A stretch of DNA of 64,000 bases from Candidatus Magasanikiibacteriota bacterium (GCA_041674805.1 JBAYVA010000004.1:30069-94068); one strand, 5' to 3'. Shown: positions 12,775-63,145, counted from the first letter of the stretch. Made by a program: numbers and translations. Notes: generated from the letters alone by a model not told the origin.

Positions 12775-12852
12775 TTATTAAAATAAGGTTAATTTTTAAT
12801 AGTCAAATGTAAATTGTCAAGATTGGTGTATTGTTACTATGATGATCAAAAG

Positions 12853-12941
12853 CGGAGAAGGCGGGATTCGAACCCGCGGTCCGGTTTTACCCAGACAACA
12901 CATTAGCAGTGTGCCCCTTTCGGCCTCTCAGGCACCTCTCC
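12853..12941 (-). tRNA. tRNA-Ser (anticodon GCU)
   Basis: Acceptor GGAGAGG, long variable arm, anticodon loop CUGCUAA, GTTCGAATC T-loop; no encoded CCA. Confidence 0.85.
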
Positions 12942-13026
12942 TATGACAACTTTTAACAGTTGGCAATTGACTATTAACTTTTTTTAAGATGTCAACTGTC
13001 ATTTGTTAAGTGTCAAAAGTTGGTCC

Positions 13027-15730: not shown

Positions 15731-15752
15731 TTTGTGGACATATAATATATAA

Positions 15753-15786
15753 AATTGGCTTAAATAAGCCAATTTTTGTTTTTTAT
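15753..15786 (+). terminator. rho-independent terminator after VanW-like gene
   Basis: Hairpin ttggctt-aaat-aagccaa followed by TTTTTGTTTTTT. Confidence 0.65.
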
Positions 15787-15798
15787 CCTTATTTACTC

Positions 15799-15827
15799 TT
15801 GACAACTTTGTTATAATATGTTATTAT
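15799..15827 (+). promoter_or_regulatory. strong sigma70-like promoter (TTGACA-17-TATTAT) driving the non-coding unit
   Basis: TTGACA at 15799-15804 and TATTAT at 15822-15827 with exact 17-bp spacing. No ORF follows. Confidence 0.45.
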
Positions 15828-15833
15828 ATCAAG

Positions 15834-16159
15834 TCGTATAAAAAAAGGTTTAACAGTTTAAGAATGTAGTAAAGTATATTTTTGACACATAAGCTTAGTA
15901 AATAAAAATATACGCTCCTGTATTCACAACTATAAATAGTTAAAGCTAAACGAGGATTTAGGATAGTGCGTTTTTCTTAGTAAAGTCTATTAAAAACATA
16001 TTATCCTGTATCCACGACAAGCATGGGGGTGTGTTGTAGGCTAGGGCAGGCTACGGCTCGCAATTGACCTAGAACACACCTTCTTGGATCAGGTAAGGAC
16101 TCAATTCCTTAATCTTTTAAATATTCCTCAACACATTTGTGCTGAGGAATTTTTTTTTG
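15834..16159 (+). ncRNA. candidate structured ncRNA, RNase P RNA (rnpB)-like
   Basis: Promoter-to-terminator unit of about 325 nt with no ORF of 60 aa or more. It contains GCUAGGGCAGG (RNase P CR-II), a 13-nt exact match GGAUCAGGUAAGG (the E. coli M1 RNA J11/12 region), and AGUAAAGUCU resembling the P4 5' strand. A canonical P4 3' strand (ACAGAA..GGCUUA) was not found in the expected place. Confidence 0.4.
16124..16159 (+). terminator. rho-independent terminator ending the ncRNA unit
   Basis: Hairpin cctcaac-acatttgt-gctgagg followed by AATTTTTTTTT. Confidence 0.6.
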
Positions 16160-16237
16160 ACACTGATTACACTGATTAGAAAAGATTACACTGAAAAATA
16201 AGCTAAGATCTTTAAACCATTATTTTTGTTTATTTAA

Positions 16238-16262
16238 AAACAGACGTGTATTAGTCTGTTTT
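16238..16262 (-). terminator. terminator hairpin overlapping the stop of the HAD hydrolase gene
   Basis: aacagac-gtgtatta-gtctgtt with T-runs on both strands. Confidence 0.5.
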
Positions 16263-18573: not shown

Positions 18574-18752
18574 ATTTGTCTTATTTTACAGCCAGCCATT
18601 ATATCTGATATTCATATTATTGTCAACTATCAAGAAAAAAGGTATAATAGATGTAATTTGTAGAATAACTATTACTTATTTTATAGTTTGTCTTATTTAT
18701 ACAGTTTTTAGTTAAAAGTTTGTAAAGTTCATTCCGCCCAAGGCGGACAAGA

Positions 18753-18818
18753 AAGTTTATAAAGTAATTTGATTGTATATTTATTTTAAAAAACTTTATA
18801 AACTTTTAACTTTATAAA
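18753..18818. repeat. cluster of TTTATAAA-core motifs (ACTTTATAAAC / GTTTATAAAGT) upstream of smc
   Basis: aagtttataaagt, then actttataaac twice. Same family as the motifs at 28915-29009 and 50093-50133. Confidence 0.55.
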
Positions 18819-18895
18819 CTATTTTTATAATAAAATGATATATACTTTAGAAAGTAGTATTTTGTTTAATATTTAATTTATCGTTTGAGTAGTGT

Positions 18896-27661: not shown

Positions 27662-27675
27662 TTTAGAAATTTAGG

Positions 27676-27796
27676 AATTTTAAATTTTAAATTATCTGTT
27701 TGCCTATGTGGTGCGAGCGGAAATATTTTTTAATTTATAAATGAAATTATTTTTATTCTCTTAATTTAGCAGACAAACAAGTTAAAATTTAAAATT
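27676..27796. repeat. imperfect long-range inverted repeat between the wzy-like gene and gmd
   Basis: Left arm aattttaaattttaaattatctgtttgc. Right arm gcagacaaacaagttaaaatttaaaatt (15/15 outer match). Roughly 65-bp spacer with a GC-rich core gtggtgcgagcgg. Confidence 0.4.
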
Positions 27797-27819
27797 ACTA
27801 AATTTAAAATTATATTTAT

Positions 27820-28836
27820 ATGCGTAAAGCACTAATAACCGGTATCACCGGACAAGATGGATCTTATTTAGCAGAATTATTGCTAGAAAAAGGTTATGAA
27901 GTACATGGTATTATTCGTCGTTCTAGTAGTTTTAATACGGAAAGAATAGATCATATTTATCGTGATAAACATGAAAAAGGTGTTAAATTATTTTTGCATT
28001 ATGGTGATTTGACAGATAGTAGCAATGTTAGTCGTATTTTGGAAGAAGTAAAACCTGATGAAATATACAATTTGGGAGCACAGAGTCATGTGCGTGTAAG
28101 TTTTGATTTACCAGAGTACACAGCTGATGCTGATGGTTTGGGAACATTACGTTTACTTGATGCTATTCGTGACAAAGGTATGGATGTAAAATTTTATCAA
28201 GCAGGAAGTTCAGAAATGTTTGGCAAAGTTTTGGAAATTCCACAAAAGGAAACAACAGCATTTTATCCTCGTAGTCCATATGCTTGTGCCAAAGTTTATG
28301 CTCATCATATTGCTGTTAATTATCGTGAAAGTTACAATATGTTTGTTTGTAACGGAATACTATTTAATCATGAATCTCCTCGTCGTGGTGGCACTTTTGT
28401 TACCAAAAAAATTGTGGATGCTTTCAAAAATATCAAAGAAGGAAAACAAGAAAAATTGTATTTGGGTAATCTAGAAGCCAAGCGTGATTGGGGTTATGCT
28501 TGTGATTATGTAGAAGCTATGTGGATGATGCTTCAACAAAAAGAGGCTGATGATTATGTCATTGCTACTGGCGAAACTCATAGTGTGCGTGAATTTGTGG
28601 AGGAATCTGCTCCTTATTTTGGTTTTGCTATTGAGTGGAAGGGAAGTGGTATGAAAGAAAAAGGAATTGATAAAAATAGTGGTAAAGTTTTGATTGAAAT
28701 AGATGAACAATATTTTCGTCCAGCAGAAGTAGATTTGCTATTGGGAGATGCTAGTAAGGCTAAAGAAAAATTGAATTGGGTACCAAAAACTAAGTTCAAA
28801 GAGTTGGTGAGTATTATGTGTGAGGAAGAAAAATAA
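27820..28836 (+). CDS. gmd: GDP-mannose 4,6-dehydratase
   Basis: [42 protein letters not shown] is near-identical in pattern to E. coli Gmd. Confidence 0.9.
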
Positions 28837-28889
28837 ATTTGTTGGTTTTTAGAAATTATGTTATAATATTTTCATAAAAAAATAAATGT

Positions 28890-28906
28890 GAGCAGAGGAG
28901 GGGGAG
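28890..28906. repeat. GC-rich 17-mer GAGCAGAGGAGGGGGAG (copy 1 of 2)
   Basis: A second copy, GAGCAAAGGAGGGGGTG, lies at 62992-63008. Both sit in AT-rich intergenic DNA next to long inverted repeats. Confidence 0.5.
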
Positions 28907-28914
28907 TGTATTTA

Positions 28915-28983
28915 GTCCATAAAGTTTATAAAGTCTATAAAGTAAAAAGTTGTGATTTTACGGACTTTATAAACTTTATGGAC
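28915..28983. repeat. perfect 21-bp inverted repeat (GTCCATAAAGTTTATAAAGTC ... GACTTTATAAACTTTATGGAC) between gmd and fcl
   Basis: Arms at 28915-28935 and 28964-28983 are exact reverse complements, with a 28-bp spacer. A third half-site, ggactttatgaac, lies at 28997-29009. Confidence 0.7.
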
Positions 28984-29002
28984 TTTAAATTTTAAGGACT
29001 TT

Positions 29003-29959
29003 ATGAACTATTTATCAAAAATTTATGTAGCTGGACATAATGGAATGGTAGGTTCTGCTATTTTGCGTTTACTTGAAAAACAAGGTTATACAAATATTAT
29101 TATACGTACGAGAGAAGAACTTGATCTGACAAATCAGCAATCTGTGGCAGATTTTTTTGCAACAGAAAAACCAGAATATGTGATTCTGGCAGCTGCCAAA
29201 GTGGGGGGAATTATGGCCAACAATACTTACCCAGCAGATTTTCTCTATCAAAATTTACAAATTCAAAATAATGTAATTCACAATGCCTATTTGAGTGGCG
29301 TGAAGAAGTTGTTGTTTCTTGGATCTTCTTGTATTTATCCAAAGAATTGTCCGCAACCCATGAAAGAAGAATATTTATTGACTGGACTTTTGGAAGAGAC
29401 AAACGAACCTTATGCGATTGCCAAGATTGCGGGAATAAAAATGTGTCAAAGTTACAATAGACAATATGGCACAAATTTTATTGCGGTCATGCCGACCAAT
29501 CTTTATGGGGAGAATGATAATTTTGATTTGAATAATTCTCATGTTTTACCAGCTTTACTTCGCAAGTTTCACGAAGCAAAAATAAATAATTTGTCAGAAG
29601 TAGAAGTGTGGGGTACAGGTACACAAAGACGGGAATTTTTGTATGTGGATGATATGACGAAAGCTTGTCTTTTTGTCTTACAAAATTTTAGTCCAACTAA
29701 GGACCAAAATGAAAATGGCGATATATTTTTTAATATTGGGACTGGAATGGATCTTACTATTCTAGAATTAGCAGAAATGATCAAGAAAATAGTTGGTTTT
29801 GAAGGAAATATAGTTTTTGACACTACTAAACCTGATGGAACTTTGCAAAAACTCTTGGATGTAACAAAAATAAATAACTTAGGTTGGAAAGATGAAAGTA
29901 GTCTAGAAGAGGGTATAAAACAGGTTTATGATTGGTATTTGGACCGTATTGACACCTAG
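29003..29959 (+). CDS. fcl: GDP-L-fucose synthase (GDP-4-keto-6-deoxymannose 3,5-epimerase/4-reductase); a ColC-like alternative is possible
   Basis: IYVAGHNGMVGSAI, LAAAKVGGI.ANNTYPADF and NEPYAIAKIAGIK.C.SYNRQYG collinear with E. coli Fcl. Confidence 0.85.
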   Translation: MNYLSKIYVAGHNGMVGSAILRLLEKQGYTNIIIRTREELDLTNQQSVADFFATEKPEYVILAAAKVGGIMANNTYPADFLYQNLQIQNNVIHNAYLSGVKKLLFLGSSCIYPKNCPQPMKEEYLLTGLLEETNEPYAIAKIAGIKMCQSYNRQYGTNFIAVMPTNLYGENDNFDLNNSHVLPALLRKFHEAKINNLSEVEVWGTGTQRREFLYVDDMTKACLFVLQNFSPTKDQNENGDIFFNIGTGMDLTILELAEMIKKIVGFEGNIVFDTTKPDGTLQKLLDVTKINNLGWKDESSLEEGIKQVYDWYLDRIDT

Positions 29960-30062: not shown

Positions 30063-30308
30063 ATGTCTGAAATCAAGCCCAACGAAGTATATACAACTAC
30101 AGAAGCTCAAGATTTACTAAAAATTAGTAGTAGTACCATGAAACGCCTGCTTAAACAAGGTCTTATTCGTGCTAATAAGATTGGTAAACAATACAGAATT
30201 CTTGGTCATGAACTTTTGCGTTTGCTTTCGCCTGTTGTAGACCAAAGGGTCACTGATTTATATCAAAAGGTGAAGATAAAAACAATTGAGAAAATTGATA
30301 AATGGTAG
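30063..30308 (+). CDS. small helix-turn-helix DNA-binding protein (excisionase/MerR-like HTH_17)
   Basis: YTTTEAQDLLKISSSTMKRLLKQGLIRANKIGKQYRI pattern of excisionase-family HTH domains. Confidence 0.5.
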   Translation: MSEIKPNEVYTTTEAQDLLKISSSTMKRLLKQGLIRANKIGKQYRILGHELLRLLSPVVDQRVTDLYQKVKIKTIEKIDKW

Positions 30309-48621: not shown

Positions 48622-48685
48622 CTTAGAAGTTTGTAAAGTTAATAAAGTAACTGTTTTTGATATTTCAACTTATTATACAGCTTTT

Positions 48686-48724
48686 CAGGCCTTTTTAGCC
48701 TTTCAAGCATTTTAAGCCTTTTTA
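48686..48724. repeat. phased (A)GCCTTTT-type 9-10-bp repeats upstream of ugd
   Basis: caggccttttt agcctttca agcatttta agccttttt; same family as 57495-57539, 60861-60953 and (reverse orientation) 57319-57362. Confidence 0.55.
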
Positions 48725-50090: not shown

Positions 50091-50092
50091 AA

Positions 50093-50133
50093 AGTTTACA
50101 AACTTTATGAACTTTATAACTTTACAAACTATA
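50093..50133. repeat. tandem ACTTTAT(A/G)AAC / TTTACAAAC motifs immediately upstream of galE
   Basis: agtttacaaactttatgaactttataactttacaaactat runs straight into the ATG. Confidence 0.55.
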
Positions 50134-51140
50134 TGAAATATTTAATCACCGGCGGTGCTGGCTACATTGGTAGTCATGTCGTCAAACAATTGATTGACAA
50201 AAAAAACGATATTGTAATTGTAGATAATTTGTCTACTGGTTTACAAAAAACTATCAATACTTTGAAAAAATACGCTGACACCAAAAAAGTAAAATTAAGT
50301 TTTTATAAACTTGATTTGGCTGATAGCAAAAAATTGGAAACTGTTTTTGCCAAAGAAAAAGTTGCAGGTGTAATACATTTTGCTGCGAGTATTGTCGTGC
50401 CAGAATCAGTGATTGACCCTTTGAAATATTATGCTAATAATACGAGTAATACAATTAATTTGATCAAAGCTTGTTTGAAATATAAAGTAAACAAATTTAT
50501 TTTTAGTTCTACTGCTGCTGTCTATGGCGAGCTTGATGCAAAATATATTCCAGCCAAAGAAGATGGACCTGTTTCTCCTATCAATCCTTATGGACAAAGC
50601 AAACTTTTCAATGAAAAGATTATTCAAGATGTAGCTTTTGCTAATTCAAAATTTAAATATGTTATCTTGCGTTATTTCAATGTAGCTGGCGCCTGTCTAG
50701 ATGGCAGTATCGGACAGTCAAGTGAGAAAGCTACTTTACTAGTAAAAGTTTGTGCTGAAGTGGCACTTGGTAAACGCAAAAAATTAACATTATTTGGTAC
50801 TGATTACAAAACACCAGATGGTACTGCTATTCGTGATTATATTCACGTGGATGATTTGGCTTCTGCTCATATCAAAGCTTTGTCTTATTTGAACAAAAAT
50901 AAAAGTGATATTTTCAATTGTGGTTATGGCAAAGGTTTTTCTGTGCAAGAGGTCATAGATATGATGAAAAAAGTCAGTGGAGTTGATTTCAAAGTAGAAA
51001 AAGCAGGAAGACGTCCGGGTGATCCTGCTGTTCTTATTTCTGATAATAGTAAGATAAAAAATAAGATGGACTGGCAACCTAAGTATGATGATTTAGAAAT
51101 TATTTGTCGCACAGCGCTTGAGTGGGAGAAGAAAATTTAG
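50133..51140 (+). CDS. galE: UDP-glucose 4-epimerase
   Basis: ITGGAGYIGSHV, the YGQSKLFNE (YxxxK) motif and GalE length. Confidence 0.85.
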   Translation: MKYLITGGAGYIGSHVVKQLIDKKNDIVIVDNLSTGLQKTINTLKKYADTKKVKLSFYKLDLADSKKLETVFAKEKVAGVIHFAASIVVPESVIDPLKYYANNTSNTINLIKACLKYKVNKFIFSSTAAVYGELDAKYIPAKEDGPVSPINPYGQSKLFNEKIIQDVAFANSKFKYVILRYFNVAGACLDGSIGQSSEKATLLVKVCAEVALGKRKKLTLFGTDYKTPDGTAIRDYIHVDDLASAHIKALSYLNKNKSDIFNCGYGKGFSVQEVIDMMKKVSGVDFKVEKAGRRPGDPAVLISDNSKIKNKMDWQPKYDDLEIICRTALEWEKKI

Positions 51141-55825: not shown

Positions 55826-55875
55826 AACCTATTTTTACCTAGTACCTAACACCTAATATCTAAAACCTAAAAAAA
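55826..55875. repeat. ACCTAA-type roughly 7-bp tandem repeats immediately upstream of pyk
   Basis: aaacctatttttacctagtacctaacacctaatatctaaaacctaaaaaaat runs into the ATG. Confidence 0.45.
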
Positions 55876-57313: not shown

Positions 57314-57318
57314 AGTAA

Positions 57319-57362
57319 AGGCATAAAATGCCCGAAAGGCAAGAAAGGCTAGTAACCTACAT
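57319..57362. repeat. AAAGGC-type phased repeats after pyk (reverse orientation of the GCCTTT family)
   Basis: aaaggcataaaatgcccgaaaggcaagaaaggctag. Confidence 0.45.
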
Positions 57363-57494: not shown

Positions 57495-57539
57495 AAAGCC
57501 TTTTAGGCCTTTTGGGCATTTTAAGCATTTCAAGCCTTA
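57495..57539. repeat. phased GCCTTTT-type 9-bp repeats upstream of ppsA
   Basis: aaagcctttt aggcctttt gggcatttt aagcatttc aagcctta; closely related to 48686-48724. Confidence 0.55.
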
Positions 57540-60860: not shown

Positions 60861-60953
60861 TAAGCAAAATAAGCAAATTTAAGTGTAAACCTAGTAAGCT
60901 TTGTAAGCCTTGTAGGCGCCTTGTGAGCCTTGTAATCTTACGTCTTGCAAATC
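60861..60953. repeat. about six degenerate tandem roughly 9-bp repeats (TAAGCCTTG family) upstream of trhO
   Basis: agtaagctttg taagccttg taggcgccttg tgagccttg taatcttacg tcttgcaaatc. Confidence 0.5.
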
Positions 60954-62896: not shown

Positions 62897-62968
62897 AGTC
62901 TAACTAATGATTTTTAAAAATGTTAAAGTATTATAGCATGAAAATTTTTTTAAAACAAAAAAGACCTG

Positions 62969-63031
62969 CTTAATGTTTGGCGTGACATGATGAGCAAAGG
63001 AGGGGGTGCTCCAGTCAACACCAAACATTAA
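62969..63031. repeat. 17-18-bp imperfect inverted repeat enclosing the GC-rich 17-mer (copy 2)
   Basis: Arms cttaatgtttggcgtgac / tcaacaccaaacattaa. The 28-nt loop atgatgagcaaaggagggggtgctccag contains GAGCAAAGGAGGGGGTG. Confidence 0.6.
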
Positions 63032-63145
63032 AAAGATCTTTTATATTATAAAATATTAGCATATTTTGACTTTGGTGTCAAGAGGATATTGTTTGTTTTT
63101 TTAAGAAATAATAAGAAATAAATTGTCTTATATTTTCTATAAAAA

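Follow-up and report, generated by a model that had tools for sequence, protein, structure and literature searches.

What is the long palindrome that stands between gmd (GDP-mannose 4,6-dehydratase) and fcl (GDP-L-fucose synthase) in the genome of a Candidatus Magasanikiibacteriota bacterium, and where did it come from? The question was addressed in a 64,000-nucleotide stretch of that genome (GCA_041674805.1, JBAYVA010000004.1:30069-94068), referred to below as the window, in which positions are counted from the first letter. A first-pass annotation had read the palindrome either as an RNA hairpin terminating or attenuating transcription between the two genes or as an operator for a dimeric regulator. 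Analysis of the repeat and of the same spacer in related loci, cited by their L numbers, points to another origin. The palindrome probably represents the terminal inverted arms of a small-gene cassette that has lost its gene, leaving a gene-less element resembling the intervening sequences (IVSs) of 23S rRNA.

The palindrome itself is real. Sequences GTCCATAAAGTTTATAAAGTC (28915-28935) and GACTTTATAAACTTTATGGAC (28963-28983) are exact reverse complements, as had been stated, and only the reported sizes required correction. Since A28914 also pairs with T28984, perfect pairing extends over 22 bp (28914-28935 with 28963-28984) instead of 21 bp, and the spacer between the perfect arms measures 27 nt instead of 28 bp. 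Imperfect pairing extends the arms to 35 nt (28914-28948 and 28950-28984) with 86% complementarity, the inner 13 pairs containing five mismatches. The perfect stem is AU-rich, with G-C pairs at 6 of its 22 positions, and both arms are made up of tandem arrays with a 9-nt period. On the plus strand, the left arm (28914-28948) comprises about four 9-nt units (AGTCCATAAAGT TTATAAAGT CTATAAAGT AAAAAGT), the outer 22 nt of which (28914-28935) form the perfect stem with the outer 22 nt (28963-28984) of the right arm (28950-28984), an inverted array of GACTTTAT-type units. A third half-site, GGACTTTATGAAC, had been placed 14 bp further on and just before the fcl ATG. It is present on the plus strand at 28996-29008, but it follows the right arm by 12 nt, forms the outermost unit of the right array and contains the fcl start codon (29003-29005).

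No longer perfect inverted repeat with a loop of up to 60 nt occurs in the window, the runner-up having arms of 15 nt. In 60 Markov simulations of 64 kb with the composition of the window, the longest arms averaged 12.0 nt and reached 14 nt at most; with intergenic composition the corresponding values were 12.8 and 16 nt. The 22-bp repeat far exceeds chance. A pattern derived from the arm matched the window seven times, against 0.47 matches expected, and related arrays were located at 18716-18821 (upstream of smc), 48627-48650 and 50091-50137 (upstream of galE), in agreement with the earlier suggestion that one motif family recurs upstream of smc and galE.

The origin of the arms became apparent from the same spacer in relatives. 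Loci L085-L089 encode an Fcl protein with 81% identity, and their spacer carries the same promoter, G-rich box and left arm. There, the left arm AGTCCATAAAGTCTATAAAGTCCGTAAGGTCAAAAGTCTTT is followed by an open reading frame (ORF) of 116 aa and then by a right arm ending in ...ACTTTATAGACTTTAAAAACTTTATGGACTTTTGACTTTATAGACTTTATGGACT, the last ATG of which is the fcl start. The ORF encodes a four-helix-bundle protein of the 23S_rRNA_IVP type (IVP; PF05635, E 2e-34; TIGR02436, E 2e-32). In L085 the perfect stem likewise measures 22 bp, encloses the 351-nt gene and overlaps the fcl ATG, and RNA folding of this spacer predicts that the gene is closed off by a long-range stem (z = -6). For comparison of the window with L085 a two-piece alignment was used; MAFFT misplaced the large gap. 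The hairpin proved homologous to the cassette arms. On the left it is colinear with the corresponding arm of the IVP cassettes of L085 and L003, and on the right, colinearity with the right arm of L085 extends over 28957-29009, the window right arm corresponding to the inner L085 units. The counterpart of the unit GGACTTTATGAAC in L085 is AGACTTTATGGAC; this unit contains the fcl ATG of that locus and lies at the base of its perfect 22-bp stem. Accordingly, the perfect partner of the left arm is provided by inner units in the window and by outer units, including the ATG, in L085. A compensatory change at arm position 13 (T/A in the window, C/G in L085) was considered and withdrawn, because the colinear alignment shows that the two perfect stems use different right-arm units.

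The deletion junction lies in the loop (28946-28961, plus strand), where AAAGT (28946-28950) is followed by TGTGATTTTAC (28951-28961). It reads ...GTAAAAAGT|TGTGATTTTAC..., falls at 28950|28951 and is situated inside the AAAGT common to the flanking units. The sequence GTAAAAAGT is identical at eight of nine positions to L085 GTCAAAAGT, the last unit before the IVP ATG, and TGTGATTTTAC at 10 of 11 positions to L085 TGTGAGTTTAC, which follows TAG-CCATAAAGT after the IVP stop. The segment absent from the window is CTTTATG...ORF...TAGCCATAAAGT. Because the two halves of the junction match both flanks of the L085 gene, the window lacks exactly the gene, as would result from a deletion between direct AAAGT units. 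The proposed ancestor would have carried, in the gmd-fcl spacer, an array of GTCYATAAAG units, a four-helix-bundle gene of about 115 codons (23S_rRNA_IVP, also S23p) and an inverted array of these units extending into the fcl start codon. The gene would then have been lost when the DNA between the direct AAAGT-containing units on its two sides was deleted, which left the arms as a 71-nt hairpin.

Other relatives show the spacer in further states. Locus L003 contains an intact IVP cassette with ATAAAGTC arms upstream of gmd, beside a truncated copy of the same arms and gene in its gmd-fcl spacer. In the gmd-fcl spacers of L003 and L007 the left arm is kept, in L003 together with the first IVP codons, and the remainder is replaced by a G/C-rich palindromic element. 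These elements (L003 3854-3973 and L007 3879-3966; CCCCTCCTATTAGGAGGGG ... CCCCCTACTAGGGGGAG) match the arms flanking DUF559 genes in L085 and L007; judged by these arms, they are gene-less DUF559 cassettes, directly analogous to the hairpin in the window. The L091 spacer retains only the promoter and an arm stub, without a hairpin, and the 57-nt spacer of L095 shows no trace of cassette or arms. Loci L005 and L006 have a GxxExxY (PDDEXK_3) gene between gmd and fcl. In the closest relative, L083 (Fcl 83% identical), the same position is taken by a hairpin of unrelated AATTTTAAA / AAAATTC units. By comparison of these loci, the history of the spacer is seen to run from a probable cassette ancestor to loss of the gene, a direction favoured because remnants persist in L003, L007 and L091 and gene-bearing copies are more widely distributed.

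The same loci bear on the proposed operator. Just downstream of fcl lies a gene of 81 aa for an excisionase-type helix-turn-helix protein (HTH_17; 30063-30308), which is kept in most of the relatives examined, with or without a cassette. Two observations favour an operator bound by a dimeric transcription factor, such as the HTH_17 protein: the perfect dyad symmetry of the palindrome and this conserved neighbour. The arms, however, are 22-35-nt arrays of 9-nt units and not short half-sites, and they begin about 47 nt downstream of the -10 element. Nor are the half-sites conserved at the orthologous promoter: the units of L083 are unrelated, and L091 and L095 have no hairpin although fcl is kept. 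The HTH_17 gene is present in the hairpin-less L095 and absent from L091, and these units recur in many other, unrelated settings (in at least 120 metagenome stretches, see below). An operator is the least probable of the explanations considered, and this part of the first-pass annotation was abandoned for the locus.

The strong predicted RNA stem, by contrast, agrees with the hairpin potential noted initially. Folding of 28880-29010 gave -37.8 kcal/mol, compared with -20.3 +/- 3.2 kcal/mol for shuffled sequences (z = -5.5). A stem of this stability followed by UUUAAAUUUU might act as a terminator or attenuator that lowers read-through from gmd or from an internal promoter into fcl, and the tract TTTAAATTTT, reported to follow the distal arm, is indeed found directly 3′ of the right arm (28984-28993). 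The details of the structure argue otherwise. Its tail is UUAAAUUUU, with only two U residues immediately after the stem, the loop measures 27 nt, or 11 nt when the inner stem is counted, and the stem is AU-rich; the short GC-rich stem, 3-8-nt loop and immediate U tract of an intrinsic terminator are lacking, and a consensus scan returned no call. The orthologous L085 stem, which encloses a gene and reaches the fcl ATG, is not followed by a U tract.

Position also speaks against termination between gmd and fcl. A promoter-like site was read from the sequence at 28839-28867 on the plus strand (-35 TTGTTG at 28839-28844, 17-nt spacer, extended -10 TGtTATAAT at 28859-28867). The block is kept in L085, L007, L091 and L006, the form TGnTATAAT recurs in other spacers of the window, and the site is a candidate promoter. 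Because the hairpin is located downstream of this site, it is assigned to the fcl leader and not to the end of gmd; a terminator placed there would follow a conserved promoter whose one evident purpose is expression of fcl and later genes. Termination or attenuation is thus very unlikely, though somewhat less so than the operator. In the preferred account, the conserved promoter would drive transcription of an fcl leader that includes the arms left by gene loss, and the leader RNA would fold into a duplex of at least 22 bp, the kind of stem that RNase III cuts mid-stem in genuine IVSs.

The layout of the cassette is general. Cassettes were taken as those found in the fetched related loci, with small genes of three families (PF05635, PF13366, PF04480). 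Flanking inverted arms of 7-10-nt units were present in all 11 examined (seven IVP, two PDDEXK_3/GxxExxY and two DUF559). Arm scores ranged from 31 to 65, whereas shuffled sequences averaged 16-21 and peaked at 23-31; the arm pairs nearest the shuffled range were those of the two DUF559 cassettes (31 and 32) and of L083 (32). The IVPs of L009, situated before gmd, and of L093, situated between gmd and fcl, are near-identical and have common arms AAGATTTAAAGATTGAAAGATTTAAAGATT. Together with the two copies in L003, this arrangement indicates that the arms are carried along with the gene.

A metagenome scan with AGTCYATAAAGTYTRTAAAGT found the arm motif (unit type GTCYATAAAG) in at least 120 stretches. 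From such motif-bearing stretches 80 loci were fetched, covering a GC content of 0.28-0.63 and including human-gut contigs. An inverted partner was present at 31 of the 79 assessable sites. The gaps between arms were bimodal, being either no longer than 130 nt, with no gene, or 344-534 nt, with a gene inside, and an ORF for an L085-type IVP was located within 300 nt of the motif in 10 of the 80 loci. Arrays flanking the metagenome IVP genes contained up to about 20 units per side. Copy number was also highly variable elsewhere, about 12 or more perfect tandem GTCTATAAA units being found in L159 (2914-3015) and L169 (7287-7409). The protein family is large: at least 7,973 database proteins match the L085 IVP at E <= 1e-10. 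Those with a source name are all labelled as members of the Patescibacteria group, and many are on very short contigs.

Different unit types, such as GTCYATAAAG and GATTTAAAG, accompany different IVPs. Nine IVPs with 58-86% identity to the L085 protein are all flanked by TC[CT]NTAAAG units, those of the L093/L009/L005 clade (43-47%) by GATT[TG]AAAG units, and the IVP of L083 (31%) by CATTGTG units. Unit type tracks IVP clade. Because non-coding units are conserved across large protein divergence, the unit sequence itself appears to be constrained.

The association of unit and gene invites an alternative in which the 9-nt units are DNA or RNA recognition sites for the cassette's own protein, whether an IVP pentamer or the GxxExxY or DUF559 nuclease of sister cassettes. 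Hairpins without a gene would then be orphan targets of a protein encoded elsewhere, comparable to REPINs and the RAYT transposases that act on them in trans. Such a protein-binding or mobility module would account for unit type following IVP clade, and for units being kept across hosts with a GC content of 0.28-0.63 and across 30-40% protein divergence. It would also fit the finding of one arm-and-gene combination at more than one site (L003; L009 versus L093), the bimodal lengths of gene-bearing and miniature forms, and the many IVP matches on very short contigs, as expected of repeats that break assemblies. Against it, co-inheritance of arms and gene explains the correlation between clade and unit without any binding, and we know of no nuclease or recombinase activity in IVP. 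Among the best 120 matches listed, none with an identity of 68% or more to the L085 IVP came from the 744-kb contig of this genome, although this does not demonstrate absence, and the 64-kb window contains no ORF for an IVP, GxxExxY or DUF559 protein. Recognition by the cassette's own protein is considered doubtful.

The anatomy common to these elements is a small gene, encoding a four-helix-bundle IVP or a GxxExxY or DUF559 nuclease, between inverted arrays of a matching 7-10-nt unit. A broader and no less tentative proposal is that the hairpin is an orphan of an undescribed class of selfish modules, common in CPR (Candidate Phyla Radiation, or Patescibacteria) and also found elsewhere, in which the encoded protein would recognise the arrays of its own module, either as DNA or in the form of folded RNA. 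On this view, the rRNA-borne subset of the class would be the classical 23S rRNA IVS.

Derivation from an IVS-like cassette by gene loss remains the preferred explanation, and the closest described counterpart is the 23S rRNA IVS of Leptospira and Coxiella burnetii. Common to both are terminal inverted repeats forming a stem of at least 22-28 bp around a four-helix-bundle gene of about 115 aa (here in the orthologous elements), short tandem repeats beside the gene start, a gene prone to decay, and short forms without a gene. The Coxiella IVS has a 28-bp terminal inverted-repeat stem, cut mid-stem by RNase III in vitro, and tandem heptamers (GACAGAT) before a decaying S23p gene; its origin has been described as unclear (PMC4990558). 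IVP genes are also known between genes of other operons (PMC3936711) and in rRNA insertions of CPR bacteria (PMC11270868). A long terminal stem is found in the window (22 perfect and 35 imperfect pairs), in L085 and in all 11 cassettes, and a PF05635 gene is enclosed by the stem in L085-L089, whereas the stem in the window has a 27-nt loop and no gene. The differences are clear as well. The element lies between gmd and fcl and not in helix 9, 25 or 45, and no rRNA is encoded in the 64-kb window, so that insertion into a 23S gene does not apply. Its arms are variable-copy arrays of 9-nt units, and sister cassettes of the same layout carry genes for GxxExxY or DUF559 nuclease folds. RNase III excision of the present element would be assumed from this likeness. 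Neither unit-array arms nor gene-less derivatives were found described in the literature searched, coverage of which was incomplete, and this is not proof of novelty. The hairpin had no match in Rfam at gathering score, and an E-value search returned only generic microRNA-precursor hairpin models (17-35 bits, with thresholds of 70-140).

Two further systems were compared. Correia elements of Neisseria (CREE / NEMIS) are short, intergenic, multi-copy elements with inverted ends, co-transcribed with adjacent genes; they form hairpins that may be bound or cut by RNase III, and they can alter adjacent expression (PMC2649163, PMC10969869). Like these and other miniature inverted-repeat transposable elements, the present family has inverted ends and many dispersed copies (three other arrays in the window and the metagenome stretches). 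It differs in that no transposase-encoding parent was found, the gene-bearing forms encoding IVP, GxxExxY or DUF559 proteins without a transposase domain, and in that the ends are tandem unit arrays and not unique terminal repeats. On reading the boundaries of L003, L009 and L093, no obvious target-site duplication was seen; no systematic search was made, and no pair of filled and empty sites was available. The REPIN-RAYT system consists of a small gene between inverted short repeats together with many gene-less inverted pairs across intergenic spacers (PMC3116915), and the same combination is seen here. RAYTs, however, are HUH/Y1 transposases (IS200/IS605-like) and REPs are GC-rich palindromes of 20-30 nt, whereas the arrays here are of AT-rich 9-mers, the flanked genes match PF05635, PF13366 or PF04480, and mobilisation in trans is putative.

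What the hairpin does at present is a separate matter. By analogy with IVSs, it most likely acts within the fcl leader as a site where the RNA is processed or its stability is set; equally, it may be a tolerated relic. Several points weigh against the account given here. RNase III cleavage is assumed purely by analogy. Sense-strand mismatches in 17 stems were of the G.U type in 22 cases and of the A.C type in 13 (p = 0.18), and the G excess of the strand favours G.U in any case. Pairing of own arms scored 42.1 and of cross-locus arms 38.8 (p = 0.02), in a set of 34 family hairpins that is biased by the choice of hairpins, and the own right arm was the best partner in only three of the 34. Complementarity may therefore be a by-product of conserved units and not itself selected. 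The flanking genes of assessable metagenome hairpins were co-directional in 12 cases, convergent in four and divergent in two, and with the latter six placements co-transcription with a downstream gene is not general. Lastly, in principle, a gene could have been inserted into a pre-existing hairpin instead of being deleted from it. A general role in coupling translation of neighbouring genes was considered and set aside, the orientation counts being not visibly different from those of a typical genome.

These points leave a substantial, though less probable, alternative, according to which the hairpin is a functionless scar. It would be only what the deletion left, any effect on fcl being incidental, and its perfect pairing would reflect recent origin or homogenisation at the DNA level (template switching between arms or slippage within arrays) and not selection. 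One-armed or decayed spacers in L003, L007 and L091, and the absence of any arm in L095, indicate that the structure is dispensable. The inner stem of the window is already decayed, with five mismatches in 13 pairs, the covariation tests were weak or gave no clear answer (22 versus 13, p = 0.18; 42.1 versus 38.8, p = 0.02), and the S23p gene of the Coxiella IVS is likewise decaying (PMC4990558). On the other side, perfect 22-bp pairing of the left arm is seen in the window as well as in L085, in different registers, and units are conserved among cassettes with 30-40% protein divergence, which argues that the arrays are constrained parts of an element.

The remaining parts of the spacer were examined in the same relatives. 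The upstream neighbour gmd (27820-28836, plus strand) was identified as an ORF with a Pfam GDP_Man_Dehyd match, and fcl (29003-29959, plus strand), the leader of which contains the hairpin, as an ORF whose identical protein P0001 bears the NCBI name GDP-L-fucose synthase, Candidatus Magasanikbacteria. The window is identical to part of a metagenome contig of 743,922 nt, and the nearest genomes to the host are those of Magasanikbacteria (CPR/Patescibacteria); the window has a GC content of about 30%, and nearly all its genes are on the plus strand. Throughout the window, Shine-Dalgarno boxes are absent from host genes, whereas they are present on cassette genes (AAAGGAGGATTTATG, AAGGGGGGTATG and AAGGGAGGGTATG; L085 1006-1359, L093 2044-2424 and L009 2336-2716). 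The G-rich, Shine-Dalgarno-like box TGAGCAGAGGAGGGGGAGTG (28889-28908, plus strand) ends in a GTG codon. It is conserved in L085 and L007 (GGAGTAGAGGAGGGGGTGCC) and also in L006, where it directly precedes the GxxExxY gene. Of its first 16 bases (28889-28904), 15 recur at 62991-63006. The latter site, TGAGCAAAGGAGGGGG, is held in the loop of another hairpin (62948-63053), which has 36-nt arms with 81% complementarity, is flanked by two genes of the minus strand and matched no Rfam family. In a minus-strand reading, its loop would present CCCCCUCCU.

A possible upstream ORF of 29 codons, MYLVHKVYKVYKVKSCDFTDFINFMDFKF (28906-28995, plus strand), crosses both arms and stops 7 nt before the fcl ATG. 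Its GTG start is in the same place in L085 and L007, where the ends differ, and there is no counterpart in L091. A coding reading of a 29-35-codon ORF through the hairpin was not favoured, the counterparts in L085 and L007 being limited to the first 10 or so codons and explained by DNA conservation. With two of three frames open in 9-nt units, an open frame is weak evidence, and a genuine upstream ORF is a speculative, minor possibility. The ATG of the right arm at 28978 now opens only MDFKF*.

Further arrays were noted in the window. The spacer between Wzy_C and gmd is filled by two 37-nt arms of AATTTTAAA-type units (27667-27703 and 27769-27805; 86% complementary). The left arm of this pair, TTTAGGAATTTTAAATTTT, recurs in the gmd-fcl hairpin of L083, so that arm families occupy different loci in different genomes. 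The spacer between the pyruvate kinase and PPDK genes contains inverted AAAGGC / GCCTTT arrays (57317-57350 and 57497-57530) separated by 146 nt. Units related to these form arrays (GCCTTTTAA x4 at 48679-48722 and TAAGCCTTG x5 at 60884-60935) that reach the start codons of the UDP-glucose dehydrogenase and rhodanese genes. Five tandem ACCTAAn units with a 7-nt period (55837-55872) stand immediately before the start codon of pyruvate kinase. Within the AT-rich array upstream of smc, a GC-rich mini-hairpin TCCGCCCAAGGCGGACAAG (18733-18751) is nested. It is identical in L006 (3876-3894), a variant TCCACCCAAGGCGGATCAG is present in L007 upstream of the DUF559 gene (2322-2675), and it may constitute a second, nested small repeat. 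Inverted TTGACA / TGTCAA-type arrays (12796-12827 and 12946-12977) flank a tRNA gene (12853-12941) in a cluster of three long tRNA genes. Within a gene-free stretch of 520 nt (15731-16250), some segments are GC-rich and a strong promoter-like sequence (TTGACA, 17 nt, TGTTATAAT) is present. An Rfam search at E <= 0.1 returned nothing for this stretch, which may encode an unannotated RNA.

For the locus, these results remove the account of an attenuator or operator between gmd and fcl, and they account for several odd short-repeat arrays of the window, which are seen as elements related to the hairpin. Where 23S rRNA IVSs and S23p genes come from, how they move and what they do are still described as unclear (PMC4990558). 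An IVS-like layout is now seen outside rRNA, in three gene families and in both gene-bearing and miniature forms. If the proposed class of selfish modules were real, it would give the S23p/IVP family a function and explain the origin of IVSs. For the annotation of CPR genomes, it is relevant that such arrays occupy many intergenic spacers, adjoin start codons and are a probable cause of assembly breaks. The gene-less, unit-array elements between protein genes are best regarded as a variant of the S23p-bearing IVS, and as a family they are of greater interest than the single decayed hairpin between gmd and fcl.

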